A stretch of 42,891 bases of DNA from Candidatus Thorarchaeota archaeon (GCA_048882325.1 JBHLRS010000027.1:1-42891); one strand, 5' to 3'. Numbered from the stretch's first letter, positions 22,579 through 42,141 are shown. Numbers and translations: made by a program. Notes: generated by a model from the sequence alone, not told the origin.

Positions 22579-24642
22579 CTATGCAGCCTTACTTCCAGGT
22601 GGAAGCTCATCTAGCTTGACTGGCACCCAAGCGCCTTCTTCGTCAGCCCTTTCCACGGCTAGAATCATTCCGTGACTCTCTATGCCGCCAATCTTCTTTG
22701 GTTCGAGATTGACTAGGAAGAGAGCTGTAAGACCCTCAAGGTCCTCTGGTTTGTAGAGATGTCCAAGCCCTGTCGCCATGGTGCGCTTCTCTGAACCGAT
22801 GTCAACCTCAATCTTGAGGAGCCGGTCTTTGCCTTTTACCTTCTCACACTTCACAATCTTACCTGCTCGCAGGTCAATCTTCTGGAAGTCGTCAAATGTT
22901 ATAGCGTCTTTAATTGGTGCCAATTTCAGTTTCACCTCTCCCGATGCTGCTGCACTTACCGCAGCCACACGGTCACTGATGATTTGCCTGAGTTCGACTA
23001 TGAGCTCTTCATCTATCTTGGAGATCACTGGTTTTGGTTTGACAATTTTTGTTCCTTTCTCAGGAGGTGTAAGAGCATCCTCGAGCAGAGCTTCGTGGAC
23101 TGTAGTAACTTCGTAACCCAGTTGCGTCCATATTGCTTCTGCAGCTGATGGTAGGAACGGTTCAACGAAGATAGCTAACGCCTTTGAAAGGGCGAGAGCA
23201 TTGAAGAGGACATCTCCGGTCTTTTCTTTGTCTTCTTTGACTAATTTCCACGGTTGTTGGGACTGGAAATACTCGTTTCCAACAGATGCAATTCTCAATA
23301 CCTCGTCAGCCACTTTCTTCAATTCATACTCGTTCACAGCGGCTGTAATAGTCTCAATAGCAGTTTCAAGCTCCTTCTTCAGGTTTGGATTGAGTGTGCC
23401 CTTCGGCACTTCACCAAAGTGTTTGTGAGTGAAGTGTATGGCTCGATAGAGGAAGTTACCCAAGGTAGCTACAAGCTCGTTGTTCACCTTCTCGGCGAAC
23501 GCATCCCAGCTGAAGTCCAAGTCCTTCGTTTGCGATGTGTATGAGGCTATGTAATATCGAAGATAGTCAGGGTCAAGACCCCTGTCAAGATAGTCATCTT
23601 CAACCCACACCACATAGCCGCGACTGCGACTGAAGTTGTGACCTTCGATCTTGACCATTCCTGATGCAACAATAGCGAATGGTAGATTATAGCCACTGCC
23701 CTTCAGCATGGCAGGCCAGAATATGCAGTGATGCTGGACTATATCCAGACCGATGTAGTGAACCAGTCGACCGTCACCGGGTTTCCAGTACTTCTCCCAT
23801 TCATCGGGCTTACCGATCTTCTTTGCCCACTGCTCTGTGCTCGACATGTAGCCAATCGGTGCGTCAACCCAGACATAGAGGACGAGTGAATCGTCTCCAG
23901 GGAACTTGATTCCCCAGTCGAGGTCTCGTGTGATGCACCAATCTCTGAGACCCTCTTTGACCCACCCAAGGGCGAAGTTCCTTGCATTCTTGGTACCGTC
24001 CACGGTCTGCAGGTACTCTCCGATGAAGTCCTCAAAAGCACTCAGTCGAAGAAATTGGTGTTTCCGGGTGATTGGTCGTGTGGGGTTTCCGCACACTGCG
24101 CATCTCGGGTTCAGGATCAGACCGGGTTCGATGTATCTGCCACAGCCCTGGTCACACTCATCTCCGCGAGCATCTGAGCCACAGTAGGGACATTCACCCC
24201 GAACGAAACGGTCAGGTTGAGACCGACCGCATGTATCGCAGAACGGAGTTTCAATCTCTTTTGCATAGATGTGTCCATTGTCCACGAGTGTCTGGACAAT
24301 CTGAATGGTCCGGTTGTGGTTCTCCTCATTGTCTGTATGTCCATAGTTGTCAAAGAAGATGTTGAGTCGGGGGAAAGTGTCCTTCAGAATTTTGTGGTAT
24401 TTCTGGTAGGTCTCTTTCGGAGTAAGACCCTCTATTTCAGCCTGCACGATGACAGGTGTACCGTGGGTGTCAGACCCACACACAAAGGTGACATCCACTC
24501 GCATCTTCTTCAGGAGTCTGACAAATACGTCTGCTGGCACGTAGGTCCTGAGGTGACCGATGTGCATTGGACCGCTTGCATATGGTAGTCCGCATGTTAC
24601 AAGCACTGGGTCTTTTGTTGGATAGTTATTCAGTTTAGTCAC
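22579..24642 (-). CDS. metG: Methionyl-tRNA synthetase with C-terminal tRNA-binding domain
   Basis: LPYA.G..HIGH, zinc knuckles, RDW.I.RDL.WG, YVW.DA, FSRS (KMSKS equivalent), OB tRNA-binding domain. Confidence 0.98.
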   Translation of the reverse strand: MTKLNNYPTKDPVLVTCGLPYASGPMHIGHLRTYVPADVFVRLLKKMRVDVTFVCGSDTHGTPVIVQAEIEGLTPKETYQKYHKILKDTFPRLNIFFDNYGHTDNEENHNRTIQIVQTLVDNGHIYAKEIETPFCDTCGRSQPDRFVRGECPYCGSDARGDECDQGCGRYIEPGLILNPRCAVCGNPTRPITRKHQFLRLSAFEDFIGEYLQTVDGTKNARNFALGWVKEGLRDWCITRDLDWGIKFPGDDSLVLYVWVDAPIGYMSSTEQWAKKIGKPDEWEKYWKPGDGRLVHYIGLDIVQHHCIFWPAMLKGSGYNLPFAIVASGMVKIEGHNFSRSRGYVVWVEDDYLDRGLDPDYLRYYIASYTSQTKDLDFSWDAFAEKVNNELVATLGNFLYRAIHFTHKHFGEVPKGTLNPNLKKELETAIETITAAVNEYELKKVADEVLRIASVGNEYFQSQQPWKLVKEDKEKTGDVLFNALALSKALAIFVEPFLPSAAEAIWTQLGYEVTTVHEALLEDALTPPEKGTKIVKPKPVISKIDEELIVELRQIISDRVAAVSAAASGEVKLKLAPIKDAITFDDFQKIDLRAGKIVKCEKVKGKDRLLKIEVDIGSEKRTMATGLGHLYKPEDLEGLTALFLVNLEPKKIGGIESHGMILAVERADEEGAWVPVKLDELPPGSKAA

Positions 24643-29911: not shown

Positions 29912-32900
29912 TCACATGGTTAGAATCACATCAATGAGTGCCTGTGCGAGAGCTATGAGTGCGTTTCCTTCCTCCTCAGATAGCTTTCCTGAGTTGATCA
30001 TTGAATATATCTGAGAGATGAGGTCGTTGAGCTTTTGAGTTGCTTGTGTCAGCTTGCCTTTGTCCATGAGGTCACGTGCAGCATCAAGTTTCCTTAGCAG
30101 TGGGCTAATGTCCTTACTAGTCAAGACATCTTCTTCGACCAGTTCCTCCAGATCCGAATCAATGACTTCACTGACTTCTTGAGGTGTATTGAAGGTGAGA
30201 GGATCTGTGAAGTAGAAACGCCATTCGTCGCCGTCAATGAAGTAGTCTCCATCTGAATCAGCGTCATTGGGATCTGTTCCGATTTCAAGCTCACCATAAT
30301 ATGAGAGACCATCATTATCGAAATCACCAGCTACGAGTGGATACATGTCATAGCCTTCACTTGGCCAAGGAATATCTGTGTCTCCGATTCCGTCTCGATC
30401 AAAGTCCACTCCGATGTAGTCAGACCAGATATTGCCCTCGAGTAATTCAGGATTATACCAGTCATTCCCGGATGGTGAGTAGAGATCAGTGGCTTGAATA
30501 GTGTTCCATATGATGCTGTTCCAATAGATCAGATTACCTTCTGATTCAAACAGGAAGATTCCATTTCCGCACAATGTAATGTTGTTCTGAGTCAGATTGT
30601 TGTAATGCGAGAGATTGAGATAGATCCCAAAGTAGGTATTATCATAACAGGTATTGTTGATCAGCCAGTTGTAAATAGAAGCATTCAGGAATATACCCAC
30701 ATTATTCGAAGTGAATGTGTTATCCCGAATTTCGTTCCCGATACTTCCCCCTCTAATGGAAATACCATATCCTAGATTTCCATAGCAGTCGTTCGCTCTG
30801 ACAATATTGCCATCTCCATTCCAGAAATGAATTCCCGCGTATCCATTGTTGTACACGGTGTTATGCTCAATCGTATTGTCGGTAGCTCCAAGTCCAACAC
30901 CAATGCCATTGACATCATTGTCATAGCACCAGTTGTCCGAAACAGTGTTCAAGTTACTATCTCCGACTACAACGATTCCTTCAAAGTCATTCGAGAAACA
31001 ATCGTTACCCGTTACAGTGTTTGAGTCAGAGTTTTGTATGAAGATACCTTGATAATTGTCCCAGCAGTCGTTCTCAAGAATATCGTTGTCACTGCTAGTA
31101 CCTCTCACAGCGATTCCCCAATAATTCCCATAGCAGTCATTGTCTACAATGGTGTTGTCATATCCCAAGAATATGTGGATTCCCGTACCTTCATCGCCTA
31201 GATTGTTGTACACAAAGTTATGCACAATTTGGTTATTATAGGCTCCGACCCCAATACCTATTCCATTCCCAAGAAGGCCATCATTGTCAAAACAGTAGTT
31301 ATCTGTCACGACACACTGTGTACTATCTAATAACACAGCAATACCTTCCCAGTCATTGGAATAACAATGGTTGTCTGTTATTGTCACAGCAAAACTATAG
31401 TCCACACGGATACCATAGCAGTTGTCAAAACAGTAATTGTTTGTCACCTCTGCATATTGAACATTGGAGAGCCAGATCCCTGCATATGCTTCAATAAATG
31501 GTATCTCACCCAGTCCACCTTCAGGTACTGAGGTGCCTGTCACAGTACAATCACGAATGATGAAATACGTGTCAACAATGTTCAGAACCTTGATGCAGCT
31601 TGCATCAGCTCCGTTGACATCGATGTAGTAGTCTTCAATGATGATTGGATCTCCATACTCTCCTGAACCAAGCCAACCATGCCAAGCATCCATAGCTCTG
31701 AGTTGCGCATCACCATCGATGTAGAACGGACCTGGATCGAGGGGATCAGTTAAGATTGTGAAAATCTCATCATAGTCACTCCAACCATCCATATCTGTGT
31801 CTGGATTGTACGGATCTGTGCCATAGATGTTTCTCTCTTCATAGTTCCATAGCCCATCTCCGTCATCATCAGGGACAATGATATCAGTATAGCCTACACT
31901 ATGGAGTAATTCTCTGGCGAGTATCACATCGCGATAAGCATCTGAAACTGCATCATATCCCGGAAACATTGGAAGGGTTGGGGTATGAACCAAATGGGGG
32001 TTGAGGCCTTCTAATCCAGCAGTGAGCATCAATTGTCTCCACATAACTAGATCTACTGCTTGGCGAACCTCCCGTATGGTAAGATGTTCATTACCAAGAT
32101 TTGACAGCGCGACAGCCCACCCAGTTGTATCAACACCAGATGCCCAATCGTCGCGACCCCACATTATCCAGAAAGGCTGATCTTCAGCCCAAATCGCCTG
32201 CAACTGACGGATGATGTCAAGGGCTTCACTGCTTAAATCCGGCGGATTCGGCCAGTTTGCATTCCAATCAATGTTGAGTGCGAGCAATGCTGCCACTAGG
32301 TCTTCATAATCCGGATTGTAGTATCCTTCATTGAAGTTACTGTCTATTGAAGCAAAATCTAACCCTGAGATGTATCCATTAGAGCCTAATCCAAAGATTG
32401 CAACATCAAAGCCAACATAGAGAGAGATACTTTCATCCCATATTGGAGGACCTGCAGATGTTGGACGCTCAAGCCCATAGTCTTCAGGATTAGTCATAGA
32501 GTAAATCCATTGTTGCCAAGGCAATGCGTGAATAACTAACTCAATACCGATACAACGAAGGTCTCTGGCCAAATTCTCTGCACGCATCATTGCGATTTCA
32601 GATTCCACAGCCACTAGAAGGTGCAGAGTAAACAATGGTTGTCCTGAAATTGTAGGCCATGGAGGATCAACAACAAGAGGATCAGTAAAGACCCAATAGA
32701 CCTCGTCACCATCTCGCCATAGATCACCATCTGTGTCCCACTCCATTGGATGAGTAAAGAAGGTGTAGAGTTCTTCAGGATCTAAAATTCCGTCAAAATC
32801 ACTGTCCGCCTCCAATGGATTTGTCGGGACACCCTGTGGGTTGTTGCCAAAGATCTCATCAACGTCGCTGATCCCGTCTGAGTCCCCGTCAACGCTAGTT

Positions 32901-35900
32901 GGGTCGGAGAAGTAGTATCGCCACTCCATTCCATCTGAGAGTGAATCACCGTCTGTGTCTGGATTCTCAGGATCTGTACCAATGATTAGCTCGCCGGTGT
33001 CTGAGATTCCATCGCCATCACTATCTATCACAAGCGGGTACATGTCAAGACCATGCCATGGGATGTCTGTGTCCCCAATCCCATCTAAGTCAAGGTCCAC
33101 TCCGATATAGTCTGACCAGATATTGCCCTCGAGAAGGTCTGGATGATACCAGAAGTTTCCATTCGGTGAGTCAATGTCAGTAGCCTGGTTGACGTTATCA
33201 ATAATCGAATTGTGATAAATGGTGTTTGATGAACTTCCCATCAGATAGATCCCATATTCATTATCAGAACAGATGTTTCCAGCCACCTCATTGTCATCTG
33301 CTGAGTTCAGAGTGATACCTCGTCGCATATTAGTACTGAAAGTGTTTCCAATTATATCGTTGTTATCAGACAGGTATAGGTAAATTCCATCATATTGATT
33401 TGTATTGCAGGTGTTCCCGATGAGCTCATTCTCTGTTGCACCATTGAGATAGATGCCTACTAGATTCACTGTGCATGTGTTGTCTGAAATTGTGTTCGAG
33501 TGCGAATCGACAAGGTAGATTCCAAACCAACCATTTCCGTCACATGTATTATCTGCGATTGAGTTCAAAGTAGAAGTTTCAAGAGAGATTCCAGAATCAC
33601 TGTTGCCATTGCAAGTGTTCCCAACCAGTATATTCCAATGTGAATCATCGAGTTGAATACCAAATTCCAGATTCCCGGAGCATATATTTCCAATTATATG
33701 ATTGCCAGAAGACTCACCCAATCCGATTCCAACATCATTCCCTGAACATGTATTCCAATAAAGAATATTTGAATTCGACTCGATAAGGGCAATTCCAGTC
33801 TCACCGTTACCGTCACAGGAGTTCTCGAAAATCACGTTCATATCTGAGAACTCTAATCGGACACCTGTGTAGAAATTATAGTTGCATATGTTCCTGGTGA
33901 CGTTATTCTCGTGTGAGTTGCTGAGGAATATACCAAAGAGGGAATTATTGTTGCAGGTGTTCCCAACCACTGCATTACCCGGACCTGAGCTCTCGAGTTG
34001 GATGCCATGTTCACCATTACCAAAACAGGTGTTTCCACTGATCAGGTTGCCATTTGAGACAATGAGCTTGATACCGTTGTAGAAGTTGTCATTGCACGTG
34101 CTCCCAATTATATGGCCATAATGAGAATTATAGAGGAAGATGCCAAACTGATCATTCTCATTGCAGATATTATCAATCAGTATGTGATTTGTCGAGTCTC
34201 CTACATCTATACCAGCGAATCCGTTGTAGTTGCATGTGTTCTCCCGCACCTCAACAGCATGAGAGTTCAATAACCAGATACCTCGGTAAACATTGCTATT
34301 GCAGGTGTTTTCAATGAGGTCATTCCCGGTTGTGTCGTGGACGTAGATTCCGATTTCGTTGTAGTTGCATGTGTTTTGTTCAACAGTGTTTCCGGGACCT
34401 CGAAGCTCAATCCCATAGTTGTTATACTTACAGGTGTTATCTCGGATTGTGTTTCCATTTGCCGATGGTGACGTAACAATACCAAAGCCATTGTTGTTAC
34501 ATTCATTCCTCAGGACAGTGCAGCCATCCGAGTTGTAACCTAGACCTATTCCAGCATACGCATTGTCATAACAGACATTGTCAACAATGGTGTTCCAAGA
34601 GCTTCCTAATCCCAGAATTATTCCGCTGTAATCATGGTCGTAACATAGATTATCAGAGATCGTGTTCCAATTACTGTCCCAACCAAGGGCAATGCCCTCC
34701 CAGGTATTCCCATAACAGGTATTCTCAGAAATTAGACAGTCTGAAGATTGATTGAGTGTGATTCCCCAGACGTTTCCGAAACAGATGTTATCGATTATCT
34801 TGGCCCCGACAACGTTGTACAGGTATATCCCTGCACGACCGTCTGTTGGTAAAGTCCCAACTGTTGCACCCGTGAGGGTACATCCACGAACCATGACATA
34901 GCTAGAAACGATGTTCCGAATCTCGATACAGCTTTTGTCAGCACCTTCAGCATCGAAATAGTAGTTCTCAATGATGAACGGGTCACCCTCAGCACCAGTA
35001 CCAGACCATCCATATAGCTCCGCTTGTGCCGCTAAGTCTTCATCACCATCGATATACAATGACTCCAGAGTGAATGCATACTCTGATGTGTTGAATACCA
35101 TCCCACCAACCAAAATGTTTCCTATGTAGAGGTCCACCTGGAAGAATCGTCCAAGCTCAAACTCCTGAATAAGAGGATCAATATAGAGTGTGACTACTTC
35201 ACTTGTCCCTTGGATAATACGTTGTGAGGAGTATTGTAGTATCTCGGCATACCAAACATCTGTATGTTCTCCCAGTTGTCTGACCTTGAGATTGACATAA
35301 GCAGTGCTGTTTATCAGTTGACCAACCAAGAATGAAATCTCACCTGGTGATTTCATCTCAATAATTTCAACATTCTCATAGCCCACATTATTAGTCTGGT
35401 CCTCGGGAGTTTCTCGGGAGGGGTCAATCTGTACCTTCAAACATCCGCTGATGAGTGTGGGCGTGAAGGTAAAGGACGCAATCGCAGATTCACCATGGTC
35501 AATTTGAACATAGTCTTTGTATCCTACCATATCAGTAGCAATTCCACCTCCAAATGGCACCTCCCAAAGAGTTACTTCAACGGGATCATTATCTGGAACA
35601 TCATTGCCTCTGTTATACACTGTGACATCGATTCGATTCAGTTCATTCTGTTTCAGTCGTAACTTCTCTTTCCATACCCCTGGGCTAATCTCACGATAAA
35701 TCTTGATGTCAGGGTTGTCCCATAACAGACCTCTTCCATCCCACGTGCTTGAATCATCTTGAGAGTATAGATACATATCTGGCGTATCTGTTGAGGTGCG
35801 ACGCTGGAAGCAGCTCACAGCATCAGCAGAGTATGAGTTGGAACCAACCCATATGTTCATGTATCTGGTATCCCCGAGGTCGTCTATTGGATACCATATG

Positions 35901-38785
35901 TAAGAGCCAGCCCCAGTCGGATAAGCAGGATGAAGAGTTTCCCATCCATTTTGTCCCTCATATTTAATGGTGACATAGGCCCCTGGAAAATTAGAGAATT
36001 TGATTTCTAGGGTGTCACCATCTATGCCTCCTACTGCTGAAACTAATACATCTCCTGCATGAGGATTGAGCTCAACTCTTGTGCCAAAGCTAGTAACAGG
36101 AATCTCATCGATGTGGGGTGCGAAGTTCCTTTTTGTCACAGTCACAGAAACATCAGATCCAATGGCGGGATCTATATTGAACAGAGCCTGTCCGTTACTA
36201 TCAGTATATTCAACTGCATAGACATACTGTCCTTGATGAAGACAGACTTTCGCAAACTTGACCGGTTTATTGGTGTCATCATTTTTCACTGTCACAGCAA
36301 AAACCTGAGGGTCAGTGGATCCAATTGACTCTGGATAAGAAACATCGAGAATTGTTGGTGTAGACGTCCAGAGCTTGGTCTCAGGGTCTCCGAAGAGATG
36401 ATATTCCTCGAAGGTTGTCTGAGCAACCTCAAAATTATCATGGAGTGTCCCCCATTGTTTCGCAGCGTGTAATTTGCCAAGTAATAACGCCCCTCCCATT
36501 TCATATACTGGTTGGTTCTCAGACTCCAAAAATCCTGGCCAGAATGATTGGATGAGTCCATCCATAAGATATGAGCTAATTATTGAATAAGCAAGACGTG
36601 AAGACGAGATTGCTGCAACAGCTCCATCTTCATCTCGTGTGATTTCCTCCGCAAAGGACTCCTTGGCGTACTCCTCAAATGGATTAACATGATTATTATA
36701 AATATCATCTACGTCCACCAGCCATCCCCCTGAATAATAACGTGTGTACATATCCATATGTTCCTGATCAGTTTCTCCATCAAACCATCCACTGTCACAT
36801 GCCATACTGATAACTAGGGGAGTGAATCCTGCGTCGCCGGTATTCAAGAGACCTAAGATATCGTAGTTTTGATTATCAGTATCAAAGTAAGGGGTAAGCC
36901 ATCCGTTAGTATCATCTCTATCACCTCTATCCCAACCATTATCATCAGTGTCAAACCTGTAAATCATGTTCTCACTCCCGCCATGACCATAGTAGAGAAC
37001 AAGGAATTTTCCATCGTTAATAGCATTCGAGATTTCGGTTAATGATTGGCCCCAAGCTATGTCATCATGATATGCATCGAACCAAAAGAAAGTAGGATCA
37101 TTAATGTATGTCAGCCAATCGGAAACCAAATCCGAACCAACATGTTCCAAAACATCATGGAACTTCTGAGGCATATGATGCTCCCAAGTGCTTGAATATA
37201 GCGTTTCTATTTCTTTTCCAAAGGAGTCTTCAACATAGTCTCTGATTCTTTCCAAAGTATATACAAACGGGAAACTCGGATCCTCATTTCCAGAATGCTC
37301 GGTGTCTTCGAATTTTGCATTGGAGAGAATACCTTCGTAGAATGAATCCGTCAGAGGTGGGGATGTTTCATAGAATATGATCTTGTCAACTGCAGTTTCA
37401 GCTTCTGCTGGATTATCAACTGATATGCGACCGTAGATCATATCTGGGAAATACTCCGCCCCTTCAATATCGAAATAACCCAGATCTGACGCGATATCTG
37501 GTCCAGAAACACCTGTGTTCGGATCATACATTTTGTAATTAGTAAATAGCCGCCTGAATTCCGCTTGATGTTGTAGATTATAAGTAGTTGGAATCATCTC
37601 GACATCGCCTAGAAATAAGACATAGGTCGGTGCAGGATTCCAAGTGTTGTAGGCTCGTTCTATCGCATATTCGATAAGAGCTGAATCTGGTGAAACTATC
37701 ATGAATGCAGCAGGAACTCCTTTCTTTGTCTTCCAAGCCGCCAAATCAAGAGCATATTGTTCCAGTTCAGCAACTGTAATTACCAAGTACTCGACGCCTT
37801 CAACGTTTTCCTCACCAGCACTTATGGAATAAGTATTATTGTCTCTTGCCACTAGCGGTCCAGTTGGTATATCAACTGGATTATAATCCAAGAGAATATT
37901 GGACATGATGTTTTCAAAGGCTTCAGAGCGTAATTCCTCCCGAATTGGTTCTATCTGGGCGGGGCTGCTGTAGTCAGCCTTCACCAACATCTGGGAGTGC
38001 GCAATCGTCCTGTCCTTGTCAGGGTTGTATTGGATAGGGAAGAAGTTAATGGATGATAATCTATGACCCCTCATTATCAGAGGTGTTGCAGGATTTCCTC
38101 CTTCGATACTTGTCCTAACTGCTGGGAAGTACGCGTTGTTGGTATATGCTGGACCTTCTTCTGTTGGGAGAATTGCGTCAACCTGTGTATCCTCTGACCG
38201 ATTCCCTTCAAATATCATCATGACCTGTGGAGGCGAGGCCGGACGTATATTGTAGGTCTCGGTGATGATTGTTGATGAGTTTGTGATAGCACTCATGGTA
38301 ACAGCAATATCGTGTGGTATTTCTACTAGCTCTGAGAGCAGGGGAACCATTGGAGCTCCAGGCTCACGACTATATGTGGCTCCAGGCATCTCCAAGAAAT
38401 CGTAAGTATTGCCCTCTATCGTGACAGTCCTCTTCCAGAACCCATAGAAATCAGCCACAATCGTGATACCTGTTGTATCGGAAGTTGTCACATGCACTTC
38501 AGCAGGTGTACCAGCGGGAGTTGCACCCCCATCAAGAGACACCCATACTCCACCCTGAGCCAGGACCGTTCTCACCTCACAAGGACGGACTTCATATGGT
38601 TCATTCACAAAACCGAAGTCGCTATCCCTCTCAAGACTTGACTCACCTACAATGTCAGGACCTGTGTCATTAGTAACATCGATCATCGAAACTGATGATG
38701 CTGATGAGATTACAAACATGGCTGCAACAGCAACCACAACAATATTCAGAAGTACCTTCTTTCGAGTCCAGCTGACCCTTTTCAT
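29912..38785 (-). CDS. Giant secreted protein: C25 propeptide + gingipain-type C25 peptidase, Ig-like domains, two NosD-type beta-helices, TSP3-like Ca-binding repeats, SBP5-like insert, helical C-terminal domain
   Basis: PG.P.VP, WK..KG, YVLFLGD, GRIS, YYGHGG, MACDSG, LFGDP; GI.L..S..N.I..N.C..N repeats; DSDGDG..D..E; ATG 38785 follows GGAGGAG. Confidence 0.9.
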   Translation of the reverse strand: MKRVSWTRKKVLLNIVVVAVAAMFVISSASSVSMIDVTNDTGPDIVGESSLERDSDFGFVNEPYEVRPCEVRTVLAQGGVWVSLDGGATPAGTPAEVHVTTSDTTGITIVADFYGFWKRTVTIEGNTYDFLEMPGATYSREPGAPMVPLLSELVEIPHDIAVTMSAITNSSTIITETYNIRPASPPQVMMIFEGNRSEDTQVDAILPTEEGPAYTNNAYFPAVRTSIEGGNPATPLIMRGHRLSSINFFPIQYNPDKDRTIAHSQMLVKADYSSPAQIEPIREELRSEAFENIMSNILLDYNPVDIPTGPLVARDNNTYSISAGEENVEGVEYLVITVAELEQYALDLAAWKTKKGVPAAFMIVSPDSALIEYAIERAYNTWNPAPTYVLFLGDVEMIPTTYNLQHQAEFRRLFTNYKMYDPNTGVSGPDIASDLGYFDIEGAEYFPDMIYGRISVDNPAEAETAVDKIIFYETSPPLTDSFYEGILSNAKFEDTEHSGNEDPSFPFVYTLERIRDYVEDSFGKEIETLYSSTWEHHMPQKFHDVLEHVGSDLVSDWLTYINDPTFFWFDAYHDDIAWGQSLTEISNAINDGKFLVLYYGHGGSENMIYRFDTDDNGWDRGDRDDTNGWLTPYFDTDNQNYDILGLLNTGDAGFTPLVISMACDSGWFDGETDQEHMDMYTRYYSGGWLVDVDDIYNNHVNPFEEYAKESFAEEITRDEDGAVAAISSSRLAYSIISSYLMDGLIQSFWPGFLESENQPVYEMGGALLLGKLHAAKQWGTLHDNFEVAQTTFEEYHLFGDPETKLWTSTPTILDVSYPESIGSTDPQVFAVTVKNDDTNKPVKFAKVCLHQGQYVYAVEYTDSNGQALFNIDPAIGSDVSVTVTKRNFAPHIDEIPVTSFGTRVELNPHAGDVLVSAVGGIDGDTLEIKFSNFPGAYVTIKYEGQNGWETLHPAYPTGAGSYIWYPIDDLGDTRYMNIWVGSNSYSADAVSCFQRRTSTDTPDMYLYSQDDSSTWDGRGLLWDNPDIKIYREISPGVWKEKLRLKQNELNRIDVTVYNRGNDVPDNDPVEVTLWEVPFGGGIATDMVGYKDYVQIDHGESAIASFTFTPTLISGCLKVQIDPSRETPEDQTNNVGYENVEIIEMKSPGEISFLVGQLINSTAYVNLKVRQLGEHTDVWYAEILQYSSQRIIQGTSEVVTLYIDPLIQEFELGRFFQVDLYIGNILVGGMVFNTSEYAFTLESLYIDGDEDLAAQAELYGWSGTGAEGDPFIIENYYFDAEGADKSCIEIRNIVSSYVMVRGCTLTGATVGTLPTDGRAGIYLYNVVGAKIIDNICFGNVWGITLNQSSDCLISENTCYGNTWEGIALGWDSNWNTISDNLCYDHDYSGIILGLGSSWNTIVDNVCYDNAYAGIGLGYNSDGCTVLRNECNNNGFGIVTSPSANGNTIRDNTCKYNNYGIELRGPGNTVEQNTCNYNEIGIYVHDTTGNDLIENTCNSNVYRGIWLLNSHAVEVRENTCNYNGFAGIDVGDSTNHILIDNICNENDQFGIFLYNSHYGHIIGSTCNDNFYNGIKLIVSNGNLISGNTCFGNGEHGIQLESSGPGNAVVGNTCNNNSLFGIFLSNSHENNVTRNICNYNFYTGVRLEFSDMNVIFENSCDGNGETGIALIESNSNILYWNTCSGNDVGIGLGESSGNHIIGNICSGNLEFGIQLDDSHWNILVGNTCNGNSDSGISLETSTLNSIADNTCDGNGWFGIYLVDSHSNTISDNTCTVNLVGIYLNGATENELIGNTCNTNQYDGIYLYLSDNNDIIGNTFSTNMRRGITLNSADDNEVAGNICSDNEYGIYLMGSSSNTIYHNSIIDNVNQATDIDSPNGNFWYHPDLLEGNIWSDYIGVDLDLDGIGDTDIPWHGLDMYPLVIDSDGDGISDTGELIIGTDPENPDTDGDSLSDGMEWRYYFSDPTSVDGDSDGISDVDEIFGNNPQGVPTNPLEADSDFDGILDPEELYTFFTHPMEWDTDGDLWRDGDEVYWVFTDPLVVDPPWPTISGQPLFTLHLLVAVESEIAMMRAENLARDLRCIGIELVIHALPWQQWIYSMTNPEDYGLERPTSAGPPIWDESISLYVGFDVAIFGLGSNGYISGLDFASIDSNFNEGYYNPDYEDLVAALLALNIDWNANWPNPPDLSSEALDIIRQLQAIWAEDQPFWIMWGRDDWASGVDTTGWAVALSNLGNEHLTIREVRQAVDLVMWRQLMLTAGLEGLNPHLVHTPTLPMFPGYDAVSDAYRDVILARELLHSVGYTDIIVPDDDGDGLWNYEERNIYGTDPYNPDTDMDGWSDYDEIFTILTDPLDPGPFYIDGDAQLRAMDAWHGWLGSGEYGDPIIIEDYYIDVNGADASCIKVLNIVDTYFIIRDCTVTGTSVPEGGLGEIPFIEAYAGIWLSNVQYAEVTNNYCFDNCYGIRVDYSFAVTITDNHCYSNDWEGIAVLLDSTQCVVTDNYCFDNDGLLGNGIGIGVGAYNNQIVHNFVYNNLGDEGTGIHIFLGYDNTIVDNDCYGNYWGIAVRGTSSDNDILENDCWDNYQGIFIQNSDSNTVTGNDCFSNDFEGIVVVGDSNLNTVSDNWCYDNDVNGIGVGLGATDNTIEHNTVYNNGYAGIHFWNGDGNIVRANDCYGNLGYGISIRGGSIGNEIRDNTFTSNNVGIFLNASIYNWLINNTCYDNTYFGIYLNLSHYNNLTQNNITLCGNGIFLFESEGNLIYWNSIIWNTIQATDLYSPSGNDWYNPELLEGNIWSDYIGVDFDRDGIGDTDIPWPSEGYDMYPLVAGDFDNDGLSYYGELEIGTDPNDADSDGDYFIDGDEWRFYFTDPLTFNTPQEVSEVIDSDLEELVEEDVLTSKDISPLLRKLDAARDLMDKGKLTQATQKLNDLISQIYSMINSGKLSEEEGNALIALAQALIDVILTM

Positions 38786-38859
38786 TAGATGTCCTCTCCT
38801 CCATCTTCCCCACACATGAAACGAGGGGCACGCTACACAGATGTCATTATGCAACCCTT

Positions 38860-38945
38860 GTCAATTATTGCTCGTATCTTACAACGAAACGTGACCTCAA
38901 GGTCCAATGCTAGTTTTCGTAACCGTTAATGTGTAATCTAAATAC
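38860..38945 (-). promoter_or_regulatory. Conserved 5' leader element, copy 2
   Basis: Homologous to 26342-26426, at an equivalent position downstream of the TATA box. Confidence 0.75.
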
Positions 38946-39069
38946 GCTTCAGAGGTTCGATATAAGTCTCTCCACCCTTCGAAAAATCGAAAGAAGCGGA
39001 TTGATTCTCCCAGTACCTTTTGAACACGTGTTCCAAGTTTATCAATAGAAAGATCGTTCAGCAAGAACC

Positions 39070-39720
39070 TCTGCAAAATTACCCTCGCGTCTTGAGGCGC
39101 CGACGAAGAGTACGCTCAGCGTGGAGTCGGTGCTTACGGAGAATTGTTGATGAGCCCTTTGATCGGGCCAGTTTGGTTCGTTCAGTTGTCGCCATTTTTC
39201 AACCTCTTGAATAAGGTGTGGGGGCCTGACCTAGGGGAGTCCGCCCCCACTGTGTCTCTGATGCCGGGAGGTGCACGGAGACAGCGAATTGACCTCATTG
39301 GAAAATGAGGATCGTAAAGAGTCAGGAACTCGCGTAGAGGTAGCGTAGGCTCTGCGCGTCTTGGTCTGTTGGTTCACGGTCGCTGTCCAGAAGGCCGTAT
39401 AGAGTATGAAGCACTTCTGCATTCTTTTGGAGGGTTGATGTTGGTCGTGATTCCTCGGTCATCGCTTCCGTCTCCGTTTACTCAGTTTATGTGGTACAAC
39501 ACACCTCTTCTTCCACTGAATTTGCTAATAATACTTGGCGTTATGAGAAACAGTATGTGGGTGTTACGGACGTAATACGTGGAGCAGATATGGACAATAC
39601 ATCTATAGAAGGATTCTGGGAGGCCGGAACTCTCAACAGAAAGACCCCTACAAATTGGGTTCCAAAAGAAGGAAAGGGGGCGGGGGGCATCCTAATTTCG
39701 GTGCATACGAACGGTAAGGG
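39070..39720 (+). ncRNA. Candidate large structured non-coding RNA of unknown family
   Basis: At least eight stems, two with GNRA tetraloops; G-U wobbles favour the + strand; no credible ORF; boundaries approximate. Confidence 0.55.
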
Positions 39721-39795
39721 TTTCTTTATTTGAAAGTGTGACTATGCAATGATTACTTCATCCAAGATGAAGTCGATGTGAAAGGAGGAAAGCAT

Positions 39796-40788
39796 TTGAG
39801 AAGATCTAGAGTTTTTGCTCTATTAGTGTCAGCCATGCTTCTTCTTGGGATTTCAACTGTGTATACAGTCGCAGTGGATGCAACCTCATACCCAGTCACC
39901 TTTGAAGAACACATTGGACACAGGGAGTACCTATACGTCGGTTCAATAGACCTTCAGTTTGATGATGAGGTCCATTTCAAACTGACAATAGACAGTCCCA
40001 TTCCAGAAACTGATTTGGATATGGAAGTTTACTACGATGGCGAAATAGTCTTCTATCTAGCTACGGGTTATGGCTACATAGGTGATCCTGAGATAATCGA
40101 GGAGGGATATTTCTGGGTGCCGTACACTGGAACATATGATATAATGATGTTCGGATATTATGTTCCATACGACATGGGAGTTGACTATACTCTCTTTATC
40201 GACTCAGCTGAAGAGTTGTTCAACATGGCGCCTCTTATGTCCCATGGATTATCTGTCGGAGCCTTGACGAGCTATGAAAACAACAACCCCCAAGCAATTG
40301 GAGCAAATGAGAAGGCCGCATTTCAAGATGTGGCAGGCGCATATACATCAGCAGCTGTCAATTTTCAGAGTGCATTTAACACAAATAGTTGGACACAATA
40401 CTCGCTTGATCCAGCGAGGTTCTGTTCAGAAGATGCATTGATAGTCGGAGGATGGGTCTGGCAGCGACCTGTTTGGGCTCACAGTAGCTTCAGTGATGCC
40501 AAGCAATTCATGGACGCTCGTAACTTCGTGTACTACATTGATGGCACTCCACTTACCGACCTCTCTAATGTTCAGACAGGACCGGTGCAGAAAGTGTTTG
40601 AAAATGGGGAGGTCGTTGGCTATAGGAAGGTGTTCGAACATGCTGTCTTTGGACCCGGGGAGTTGGCTGAACTCATAGGTACGGGAGAACATTCTATGCT
40701 AGTCCGCTATATTGGACCAGGCTTTGACATTCCATACATATACTTCTACTTCTGGCTAATGCCCGAGGGATGGACCGGACCATATTAA
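39796..40788 (+). CDS. Secreted hypothetical protein with PPC-like beta domain
   Basis: Signal peptide; DLDM.VY and TGTY.I motifs; TTG 39796 follows AGGAGG. Confidence 0.75.
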   Translation: MRRSRVFALLVSAMLLLGISTVYTVAVDATSYPVTFEEHIGHREYLYVGSIDLQFDDEVHFKLTIDSPIPETDLDMEVYYDGEIVFYLATGYGYIGDPEIIEEGYFWVPYTGTYDIMMFGYYVPYDMGVDYTLFIDSAEELFNMAPLMSHGLSVGALTSYENNNPQAIGANEKAAFQDVAGAYTSAAVNFQSAFNTNSWTQYSLDPARFCSEDALIVGGWVWQRPVWAHSSFSDAKQFMDARNFVYYIDGTPLTDLSNVQTGPVQKVFENGEVVGYRKVFEHAVFGPGELAELIGTGEHSMLVRYIGPGFDIPYIYFYFWLMPEGWTGPY

Positions 40789-40845: not shown

Positions 40846-42141
40846 TTATAGAAAGATGGTATCGCCATAAAAGCCAGAGCCAAAAACTACCGGTCCCAAC
40901 GAAAGACCCATGCCGTCCCCATCGTCATCATAGAGAGGAGTTTCAGGCCTACTGTCATGGGCAGCCGCATAGATGAATGCCTCACGCATAGAGATCATTC
41001 CATCAGTAATGTAATCCGCGTTAGCTGGACCAATACCTCCAGGCAACTGTATACCGATTAAAGCGGACATGAAGTGATAGACAAACTCGTCCCATTGACC
41101 TTCAGTGTCACACCCATAGGAACTCTCTGCAACTCCTGCTGCTGTCATTATCACTCTGTTTGAAGCACTGATATATTGAATGAACTTGCCAGACACACAT
41201 TGTTCCATCACAATAATCATGTGATCACACGTAATCGAATCAAGCCAGTCAGAAACCTGAGCGTGCGTAAGTGCACCACTAGAATCCATTGGACCCCATA
41301 CACTAATCCCGCTACTGCCTCCATGGTTCGTCGTGTAGAAGAAGAGTGTGTCCCGGTATCCCATCTGATCACTCAGAGTAGCAAAAACAGTGTCAAGCGA
41401 CGTGTGAGTTGCAGGATAGTCCACAGGCGTATATGGATCCTCTCCTACGCCATCCTTGTAAACGACATAGATGTTCTGTGACTGGTAACCATGCATCTGT
41501 AGGATGAAATACATGTAGATGATGTCATTCCAGTATCGGTAGTACGCCTTCTCAGGCTTTATCCCACCGCTATAAAGGACTGCATACTTCTCAGCAGAGG
41601 GATCATACTGAAATGGTTTGTATTCATTGAGAATGTCCGTGTCGAGAATCTGATCCTTAAAGAAACCTTGAACAACCGAATCCACGGGTCGCGCAGTATA
41701 CTGTGAATATCTCACTCCTAGGACACCATCACTTTCATCTGCCCACTCACCAGTCCCTTTCACATCACATCGTTGCCCAACATAGTCTTCCATAGCCTGA
41801 GGTGGTTCCCCAGTCACAAGTATGTAATTGTCAGGTTGGAGTGAGTTATTCAAAAACGACCAAAGACTCTCCACCAGCATCGGAAATCCAGCAGAAATAA
41901 CATAGAAGCCAGTAATCGTAATCGTCTTACCAATGTATGCCTCTGGATTACTTGTAACATCTCCAATCCCCATGGGAACATTTTCGAGAGGAACTGAAGG
42001 CCTATAGAAAATGAAGTAGTATAACGTCCCTAAATTAGTACCAATCAGAATTACAATCAGCGCAATCAATGTGACTGGCCGCTTTGAACCTGTTTTACCC
42101 TTTTTACTCTTCGACACCGTTGTAACCTCTTGTTGAATCAT
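40846..42141 (-). CDS. Membrane-anchored clan CD cysteine peptidase (C13 legumain/caspase-like) with OB-like domain
   Basis: YAVL.SGG, RYWND...Y..L...G, TTNHGG, MEQCVSG, SYG; start may be GTG 42117. Confidence 0.85.
   Translation of the reverse strand: MIQQEVTTVSKSKKGKTGSKRPVTLIALIVILIGTNLGTLYYFIFYRPSVPLENVPMGIGDVTSNPEAYIGKTITITGFYVISAGFPMLVESLWSFLNNSLQPDNYILVTGEPPQAMEDYVGQRCDVKGTGEWADESDGVLGVRYSQYTARPVDSVVQGFFKDQILDTDILNEYKPFQYDPSAEKYAVLYSGGIKPEKAYYRYWNDIIYMYFILQMHGYQSQNIYVVYKDGVGEDPYTPVDYPATHTSLDTVFATLSDQMGYRDTLFFYTTNHGGSSGISVWGPMDSSGALTHAQVSDWLDSITCDHMIIVMEQCVSGKFIQYISASNRVIMTAAGVAESSYGCDTEGQWDEFVYHFMSALIGIQLPGGIGPANADYITDGMISMREAFIYAAAHDSRPETPLYDDDGDGMGLSLGPVVFGSGFYGDTIFL

Follow-up and report, generated by a model that had tools for sequence, protein, structure and literature searches.

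A conserved microprotein gene and an adjoining three-hairpin RNA fold in Thorarchaeota

What is encoded by the roughly 650 nucleotides (nt) that lie between a giant peptidase gene and a reading frame of 336 amino acids (aa) in Candidatus Thorarchaeota archaeon (GCA_048882325.1, JBHLRS010000027.1:1-42891)? The window, by which we mean the whole stretch of 42,891 nt that was analysed, had been singled out at positions 39,070 to 39,720 by a preliminary description, which saw there a hairpin-dense intergenic region and a candidate large noncoding RNA read from the plus strand. The sequence strings that it listed were all found where it placed them. The region is not intergenic, as it holds two protein-coding open reading frames (ORFs), and most of the 650 nt consists of these two small protein genes, which are under purifying selection, together with their promoter region. 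Between the genes lies a conserved RNA fold of about 115 nt. Both the microprotein family encoded by the first gene (ORF1) and the three-hairpin RNA motif are undescribed, and so is the second, basic protein gene. We propose, at a probability of about 0.45 for the full explanation including a regulatory role, that positions 39017-39690 form a minus-strand, Thorarchaeota-specific cassette composed of a promoter, ORF1, the 115-nt RNA, a second gene (ORF2) and a palindrome.

The extent of the locus is marked by conservation. A block at approximately 39020-39690 was recovered by blastn at 73-82% identity in 19 of 24 congeneric genomes, with sharp edges. Twenty-one copies from the genus were aligned (alignment A1), and 27 sequences were used for the comparison across genera. 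The columns of A1 are of four kinds, namely those that follow the three-base rhythm of ORF1, those of ORF2, about 115 near-invariant bases, and flanking non-coding blocks.

ORF1 (P0001; MTEESRPTSTLQKNAEVLHTLYGLLDSDREPTDQDAQSLRYLYASS; 39322..39462, minus strand) encodes 46 aa with a predicted helix-loop-helix, ends in TGA, and is a protein-coding gene under purifying selection. In an ungapped codon alignment of the 21 copies, the ratio of nonsynonymous to synonymous differences (pN/pS) is 0.12 in frame versus 0.25 to 4.7 in the five other frames, and variable columns number 18, 9 and 39 at the three codon positions. The start codon is ATG in 20 copies and GTG in one, and the stop codon occupies a constant column, being TGA or TAA in the genus and TAG in other genera. 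A six-frame search located ORF1 in 66 of 87 genomes of the order Thorarchaeales, including 23 of the 24 high-quality genomes, and in 17 of 17 genera; the profile found it in none of 223 other Asgard genomes representing 28 other families. Carriers have it once, G020 and G025 being exceptions with two copies each. In G020 the whole cassette occurs twice (C45:4025-4405 and C261:49-475), the second time on a contig of 567 bp. G025, the sole genome of a second family, carries two diverged ORF1 paralogues (C48:45550 and C56:11339), one of which is trailed by a compacted version of the RNA.

No Pfam (E up to 10, DUF1127 included), NCBIfam or PHROG family matched the ORF1 protein, and its homologues in databases are labelled solely "hypothetical protein". 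An AlphaFold model consists of two helices spanning residues 10-27 and 33-44, with a predicted local distance difference test score (pLDDT) of 82.5, and the helices bear a repeated motif, LHTLYG / LRYLYA. Foldseek comparison of the model with the PDB returned nothing below E = 3, and comparison with the ESM Atlas returned unnamed clusters only. The protein is acidic, with a net charge of about -4.

ORF2 (P0039; MATTERTKLARSKGSSTILRKHRLHAERTLRRRLKTRG; 39079..39195, minus strand) encodes a strongly basic protein of 38 aa with a net charge of +11, ends in TAA and has GAGGT 8 nt upstream. It too is a protein-coding gene under purifying selection. Its start and stop columns are conserved, its gaps come in triplets (3 or 12 nt), and its 18-codon core has a pN/pS of 0.25 versus 1.0 and 3.6 off frame; codon-family switches occur at Arg (CGN/AGR), Ser (TCN/AGY) and Leu. 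ORF2 was found solely at the cassette locus, in this genus, in three genomes of genus g25 and in four of genus g22, where it is more diverged; in some g25 genomes it is close to the ORF2 of this genus. No Pfam, NCBIfam or PHROG family matched it. Both ORF1 and ORF2 are hydrophilic and have no membrane helix.

The third component is the RNA of 115 nt (39211..39325, minus strand; covariance model R1) that lies between the two genes and forms three hairpins. Following the minus strand and giving plus-strand coordinates, these are P3 (39293-39310; CCTCATT-GGAA-AATGAGG, in minus sense CUCCUCAU / AUGAGG), P2 (39253-39283; TGTCTC/GAGACA, in minus sense GUCUC / GAGAC) and P1 (39218-39250; GTGGGGGC/GCCCCCAC, in minus sense GUGGGGG... 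/ ...CCCCCAC, with a variable inner hairpin and then CACACC). P2 is capped by UGC-ACCUCCCG-GCA, its apical loop ACCUCCCG being located at 39265-39272. The fold is kept through compensatory changes. All 60 sequences examined, from 16 genera, individually fold into the same three hairpins, and in a MAFFT alignment the model structure pairs in 90.8% of cells versus 35-59% with slid partners. Both sides have changed at 13 of the 27 pairs, which was matched by 0 of 500 shuffles. The segment 39211-39325 has a folding z-score of -3.57 on the minus and -2.84 on the plus strand, and all remaining sub-segments stay at |z| <=1.3 (300 dinucleotide shuffles each). Indels of one and two bases within the element break every reading frame; therefore, the element is not coding.

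The RNA travels with ORF1. Model R1 places the element directly 3' of the ORF1 stop codon in 64 of 67 loci, and detects one copy in the genome under study, copies in 23 of 26 sampled genomes of the family, and none in 124 other Asgard genomes. The P2 loop core CUCCCGGC is present in 60 of 60 sequences and CCUCCCGGC in all except four of genus g29; P3 is invariant in its stem sequence and P2 in its loop. Runs of T follow P1 in several genera that have no ORF2.

With regard to its identity, the preliminary description was right that the RNA belongs to no known family: nothing in Rfam reached the gathering threshold, a cmscan of 38855-39777 against all 4227 families gave five chance-level matches only at E up to 10, and a conserved structured RNA is present all the same. 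Nothing speaks for a decayed ribozyme or intron derivative, which had been offered as an explanation: Rfam gave no hit at E up to 10, neither a tRNA-like fold nor a sign of decay was seen, and the element is strongly conserved and single copy in all but two carriers. ARAGORN found no tRNA-like gene in 38900-39800. RNase P RNA and signal recognition particle RNA were considered and dismissed, as the true genes are elsewhere (contigs C3 and C25). A second, weak match to archaeal RNase P RNA was recorded at C5:8936-9065 (25 bits, E 4e-5, below the cut-off). A kink-turn (K-turn) of the form UGAUG...GGAGAC was also rejected, being restricted to this genus and to the plus sense.

The larger structure that had been envisaged around this element is not borne out. 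Taken whole, the 651 nt have z-scores of -1.44 on the plus and -2.30 on the minus strand (20 shuffles), and the structured part is about 115 nt. Among the hairpins listed in the preliminary description, the three central ones (39218-39250, 39253-39283 and 39293-39310) are kept across 16 genera, whereas all the others lack such conservation. The helices 39095/39126, GCCC/GGGC, 39331/39350, ACGGTC/GGCCGT, TTCTGG/CCGGAA and GCATC/GGTGC, and the closing pair TCAACC/GGTTGA, pair in 32-78% of cells in the 21 sequences. One of these unsupported helices reaches 91% only through its position in coding sequence that does not vary; the shuffle counts range from 11 to 60 of 500, and several of the helices fall inside ORF1 or ORF2. 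The long-range pair CCGCCCCC/GGGGGCGG exists in this genome only, its relatives having CCCTCTCCCC, and for the pair AGGTGTG/CACACCT the variants of the leader go uncompensated.

Which strand carries the RNA is a separate matter. Wobble pairs had been taken to indicate the plus strand, but the count of G.U over A.C favours the minus sense, at 59 versus 23 overall and 37 versus 5 in P1, the best-covarying helix, and the element sits directly behind a minus-strand ORF. We take the element to be a minus-strand 3' domain of the messenger RNA (mRNA) of ORF1, because of this G.U excess, its location within 10-20 nt of the minus-strand stop codon, and the runs of T. With respect to expression, parts of the stretch turn up in six metatranscriptome runs. 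In four of these runs, each from a different study, contigs match 39235-39477 at 80-97% identity; these contigs come without strand or ends, and carry-over of DNA is possible. At that identity the contigs derive from relatives. The covered part comprises ORF1, P3, P2 and part of P1; ORF2 and the promoter side are missed, and since the runs hold relatives, this gap is uninformative.

Upstream of ORF1, conserved blocks outline a putative promoter region. The upstream edge of conservation is a C-rich box, CCCCCGCCCCC-N-TTCTTTTGGAAC in minus sense (39659..39686, minus strand), which has a fixed distance of 215-240 nt to the ORF1 ATG in many genera of the family and is near-unique in its own genome, with one other loose match. 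An inverted repeat, GTGTTAC-N4-GTAATAC (39561..39578), is a candidate operator or upstream promoter element; it is one part of a series of TAYYAC repeats that precede the TATA box, and these TA(T)YAC blocks stay in register in 21 same-genus and 27 cross-genus sequences. A putative TATA-like box, TATTATTA in minus sense (39526..39533, minus strand), is represented elsewhere by aligned boxes of the type TTTATAT, TTATATA or TTTAAT, the distance to the AGAGGTG motif being 23 nt in the representative of genus g16. The leader motif AGAGGTGTGTTGTACCAC (39491..39508, minus strand) contains a Shine-Dalgarno-like GAGGTG and in most genera precedes the ORF1 ATG by 44-90 nt; across genera the TATA-type box sits just ahead of a conserved AGAGGTGAGTTGTACCAC. 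Judged by this arrangement, transcription probably starts at or just behind the leader motif. The Shine-Dalgarno (SD) sequence of ORF1 is GGAG (39472..39475, minus strand), 9 nt before the ATG, and nearly all genomes have GGAGA or GGTGA at that position; across genera the GGAGA form is spaced 8-10 nt from the ATG. The sequence TTTATC at ~39038, earlier suggested as a plus-strand promoter, is not conserved.

The downstream edge of the cassette is a palindrome, TTGAACACGTGTTCCAAG (TTGGAACACGTGTTCCAA), at 39017..39036, with the core GAACACGTGTTC at 39022-39033. It is invariant in 16 of the 21 same-genus sequences, occurs after the cassette in several other genera as well, and stays with the cassette when the neighbours change. 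Eight exact copies of GAACACGTGTTC are present in the 3.6-Mb genome versus ~0.4 expected, with none for the reversed control, and all but one of the sites are intergenic. This distribution makes the palindrome a candidate operator for a transcription factor. Four of the copies fall within 700 bp (C9:80034-80731), where divergent genes leave a gap of ~900 bp with few ORFs, and further copies are found at C3:60638, C20:5758 and C40:16833. The cluster on C9 may be the operator of a regulon, or it may mark further hidden small genes.

The surroundings of the cassette differ among genomes. Here it is bordered on one side by the start of a C25-peptidase gene of 2980 aa (29912..38854, minus strand) and on the other by the 336-aa ORF (39778-40788, plus strand), which has no Pfam family; the gene beyond that ORF (40846-42141, minus strand) has a partial Peptidase_C13 (legumain-like) domain. 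The ancestral gene order, all on one strand, is c0 (405 aa), the cassette, and metS, the gene for methionyl-tRNA synthetase. The c0 family (~405 aa, no Pfam match) precedes the cassette in 33 genomes, its end lying ~250-300 nt ahead of ORF1 (as at loci L039 and L027, among others); the genome under study (G000) has three distant c0 paralogues at other places, of which contig C8 carries two and C24 one. Downstream, metS follows on the same strand in at least seven genera; in this genus the two are not adjacent in most genomes. In the window metS is found at 23500-24633 (minus strand), ~14 kb off, and the giant C25 peptidase and HgcAB-like genes have apparently been inserted between it and the cassette. 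As metS lies 14 kb away and the cassette is intact, the cassette is a chromosomal rather than a mobile unit and is independent of metS.

The proposed working of the cassette can be set out as follows. A TATA-type promoter would drive a short mRNA of ~320 nt, or ~450 nt where ORF2 is present. This mRNA would encode ORF1 and then, 10-20 nt past the stop codon, the three-hairpin 3' domain of ~115 nt; in this genus ORF2 would be a second cistron after the hairpins, and the GAACACGTGTTC palindrome would close the unit. The C-rich motifs of the RNA (CACCUCC in the P2 loop and CUCCUC in P3) would pair with ribosome-binding sites of the GGAGG type, either in cis, at the SD sequences in front of ORF1 and ORF2, or in trans, once set free from the 3' untranslated region (UTR). 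The P2 loop CACCUCC is identical to the 3' tail of 16S ribosomal RNA (rRNA) as read from a family member, G042 (...GGAUCACCUCCU), the 16S rRNA not being assembled in the genome under study; a typed pattern for the 16S 3' end had no match in 41 genomes of the family. The 16S gene of G042 (contig C2, locus L103) has an insertion of ~95 nt with three similar hairpins (loops CAUUUCG) between ...GGUAUCCGUAGCGG and the tail GCUGCGGAUGGAUCACCUCCU. This insertion could be an expansion segment or an intron.

As in the bacterial ccaF1-CcsR locus discussed below, the 3' domain may be a regulatory RNA that acts through C-rich, anti-SD-like motifs, and we hold this possibility at rather less than even odds. 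Several results weigh against it or against the minus-strand assignment on which it builds. The P2 loop CACCUC is complementary to GAGGUG in the leader, and the 5' arm of P2 to the ORF1 SD sequence, with no covariation in either case; such complementarity is inherent to any SD/anti-SD pair. In the genome under study, the sequences ahead of start codons show no enrichment of the extended complement CCGGGAGG (7 of 59 versus 5 of 59 for the control). The second C-rich motif, CUCCUC, sits within the P3 stem and not in a loop, and the invariance of that stem also fits recognition by a protein. Folding energy is blind to strand, being lower for the minus sense in 27 of 60 sequences, raw G.U counts from single folds decided no strand preference, and the metatranscriptome contigs, as noted, are unstranded. 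A bolder version would make the transcript a bifunctional RNA and the core of a Thorarchaeota-specific ribonucleoprotein, in which CACCUCC, as a mimic of the 16S tail, serves as a global decoy or sponge for SD sequences or for 16S-tail recognition factors, tuning translation initiation together with the encoded microproteins; this we consider improbable.

The closest parallel to this design is the ccaF1-CcsR1-4 locus ('cuckoo' RNAs, Rfam family ar14 and relatives) of Rhodobacter sphaeroides, where the gene for a 71-aa DUF1127 protein is followed by 3'-UTR hairpins with CCUCCUCCC loops, and where the CcsR RNAs are excised from the 3' UTR and act on targets while the small protein binds them (PMC8034643). 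The likeness consists in a small ORF (47-71 aa there) followed by a row of hairpins on the same, here presumed, transcript, in a C-rich, anti-SD-like loop (CCUCCUCCC there and ACCUCCCG here, the full 9-mer being absent here), and in a linkage of ORF and RNA across the whole clade. In contrast, the cuckoo locus is bacterial (Alphaproteobacteria) and ours archaeal, its hairpins form repeated two-hairpin units whereas ours are three unlike hairpins with one motif-bearing loop only, and CcaF1 is arginine-rich whereas ORF1 is acidic. To our knowledge, archaea have no RNase E. For the cuckoo/ar14 type, neither an Rfam match for the RNA nor a DUF1127 match for the adjacent ORF1 was obtained at E up to 10, and the likeness is therefore an analogy of design only. 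Bacteria also have C-rich-loop RNAs that pair with ribosome-binding sites, for example through the UCCC motifs of RsaE and RNAIII in Staphylococcus. The exposed CCUCCC loop described here resembles these in being complementary to SD sequences of the GGGAGG type, but RsaE and RNAIII are stand-alone small RNA genes of bacteria. For the archaeal loop no targets were found, its complement showing no enrichment ahead of start codons. Among archaeal RNAs, the H/ACA and C/D guide RNAs are comparable as multi-hairpin small RNAs, and ACA-like triplets do occur after P2 and P1 (GAGAC-ACA and CCCCC-ACA). Membership of either class was rejected, with internal loops of 1-3 nt, no pseudouridylation pocket, no conserved K-turn or K-loop, no C/D boxes across genera and no Rfam hit.

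Other explanations place the weight elsewhere. The three-hairpin domain could be a protein-binding platform or a module for 3'-end stability or termination, the C-rich motifs being protein sites and the binder being, for instance, ORF1, ORF2, or a KH or L7Ae-type host protein. The invariance of the P3 stem and the P2 loop exceeds the needs of the fold alone, and G025 keeps the motifs GCUCCUCA, CCUCCCGGCA and CCCCCAACACC though parts of its stems are gone; a very basic ORF2 (+11), T-runs behind P1 where ORF2 is lacking, and the binding of RNA by the small protein in the cuckoo analogue (PMC8034643) would suit such a role. However, ORF2 is missing in 13 of the 16 genera with the RNA, an acidic ORF1 (~-4) would be unusual as an RNA binder, and no K-turn is conserved. 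We regard this account as rather unlikely taken by itself, a protein-binding or 3'-end stability role being nearly as likely as the SD-pairing role. Little credence is given to a plus-strand noncoding RNA of several hundred nt that would begin near the palindrome and TTTATC at 39038 and run antisense to ORF2, the hairpins and ORF1. In plus sense the operator-like palindrome is indeed followed closely by T-rich sequence with a weak likeness to a TATA box, and runs of T come after the G-rich box near 39690-39730. The element is slightly more stable as plus strand (-45.7 versus -42.7 kcal/mol), and GNRA-like loops (GGGA and GGAA) appear in plus sense in this genome. Yet conservation is lacking around TTTATC, the sequence of the GGAA loop is free to vary, and the GGGA reading concerns an invariant segment without covariation. 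The ratio of G.U to A.C in P1 (37 versus 5) points to the minus strand, there is neither excess folding nor covariation beyond the 115 nt, and the conservation of the flanks is explained by the codon-periodic substitution of the two minus-strand ORFs.

The recurrent downstream position of metS on the same strand, in at least seven genera, could suggest that the RNA and the palindrome serve that gene as leader or operator, similar to the tRNA-mimicking operator of thrS in Escherichia coli, with ORF1 as a leader peptide; P3 even contains CUCAU, the letters of the tRNA-Met anticodon loop. These letters, however, are paired and not in a loop. The cassette is fully conserved here with metS ~14 kb away and large genes in between, it is not adjoined by metS in most genomes of the genus, and the palindrome accompanies the cassette and not metS. 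Since the conservation of the ORF1 protein also goes far beyond what a leader peptide needs, we find very little to recommend this possibility. Hardly any probability remains for a type I toxin-antitoxin or mobile module, in which a small toxic peptide and an antisense or fold-back RNA would move between loci. Small ORFs beside a structured RNA, flanking genes that vary among several genomes, and the closeness of ORF2 in some g25 genomes to that of this genus would be expected of such a module. In opposition to this, the cassette mostly has one copy (G020 and G025 excepted), is near-universal in the order and sits in the ancestral c0-cassette-metS synteny, both small proteins are hydrophilic and free of membrane helices, no family of the PADLOC type or from PHROGs was found, and terminal repeats are absent except for a shared TGGAAC half-site.

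The minus-strand cassette that we propose bears on a group of organisms of wide interest, since no known organisms are closer to eukaryotes than Asgard archaea, in which small proteins and regulatory RNAs are almost uncharted. It occurs in every genus searched of one Asgard order and is conserved like housekeeping genes, whereas databases hold scattered "hypothetical protein" calls or nothing in its place. The covariance model and the protein profile can now be used for annotation, and the locus demonstrates that seemingly empty intergenic DNA in Thorarchaeota genomes hides real genes. If the RNA does act through its anti-SD loop, the cassette would be an archaeal counterpart of the bacterial design of a small ORF with a 3'-UTR RNA, and would represent a case of convergent evolution.

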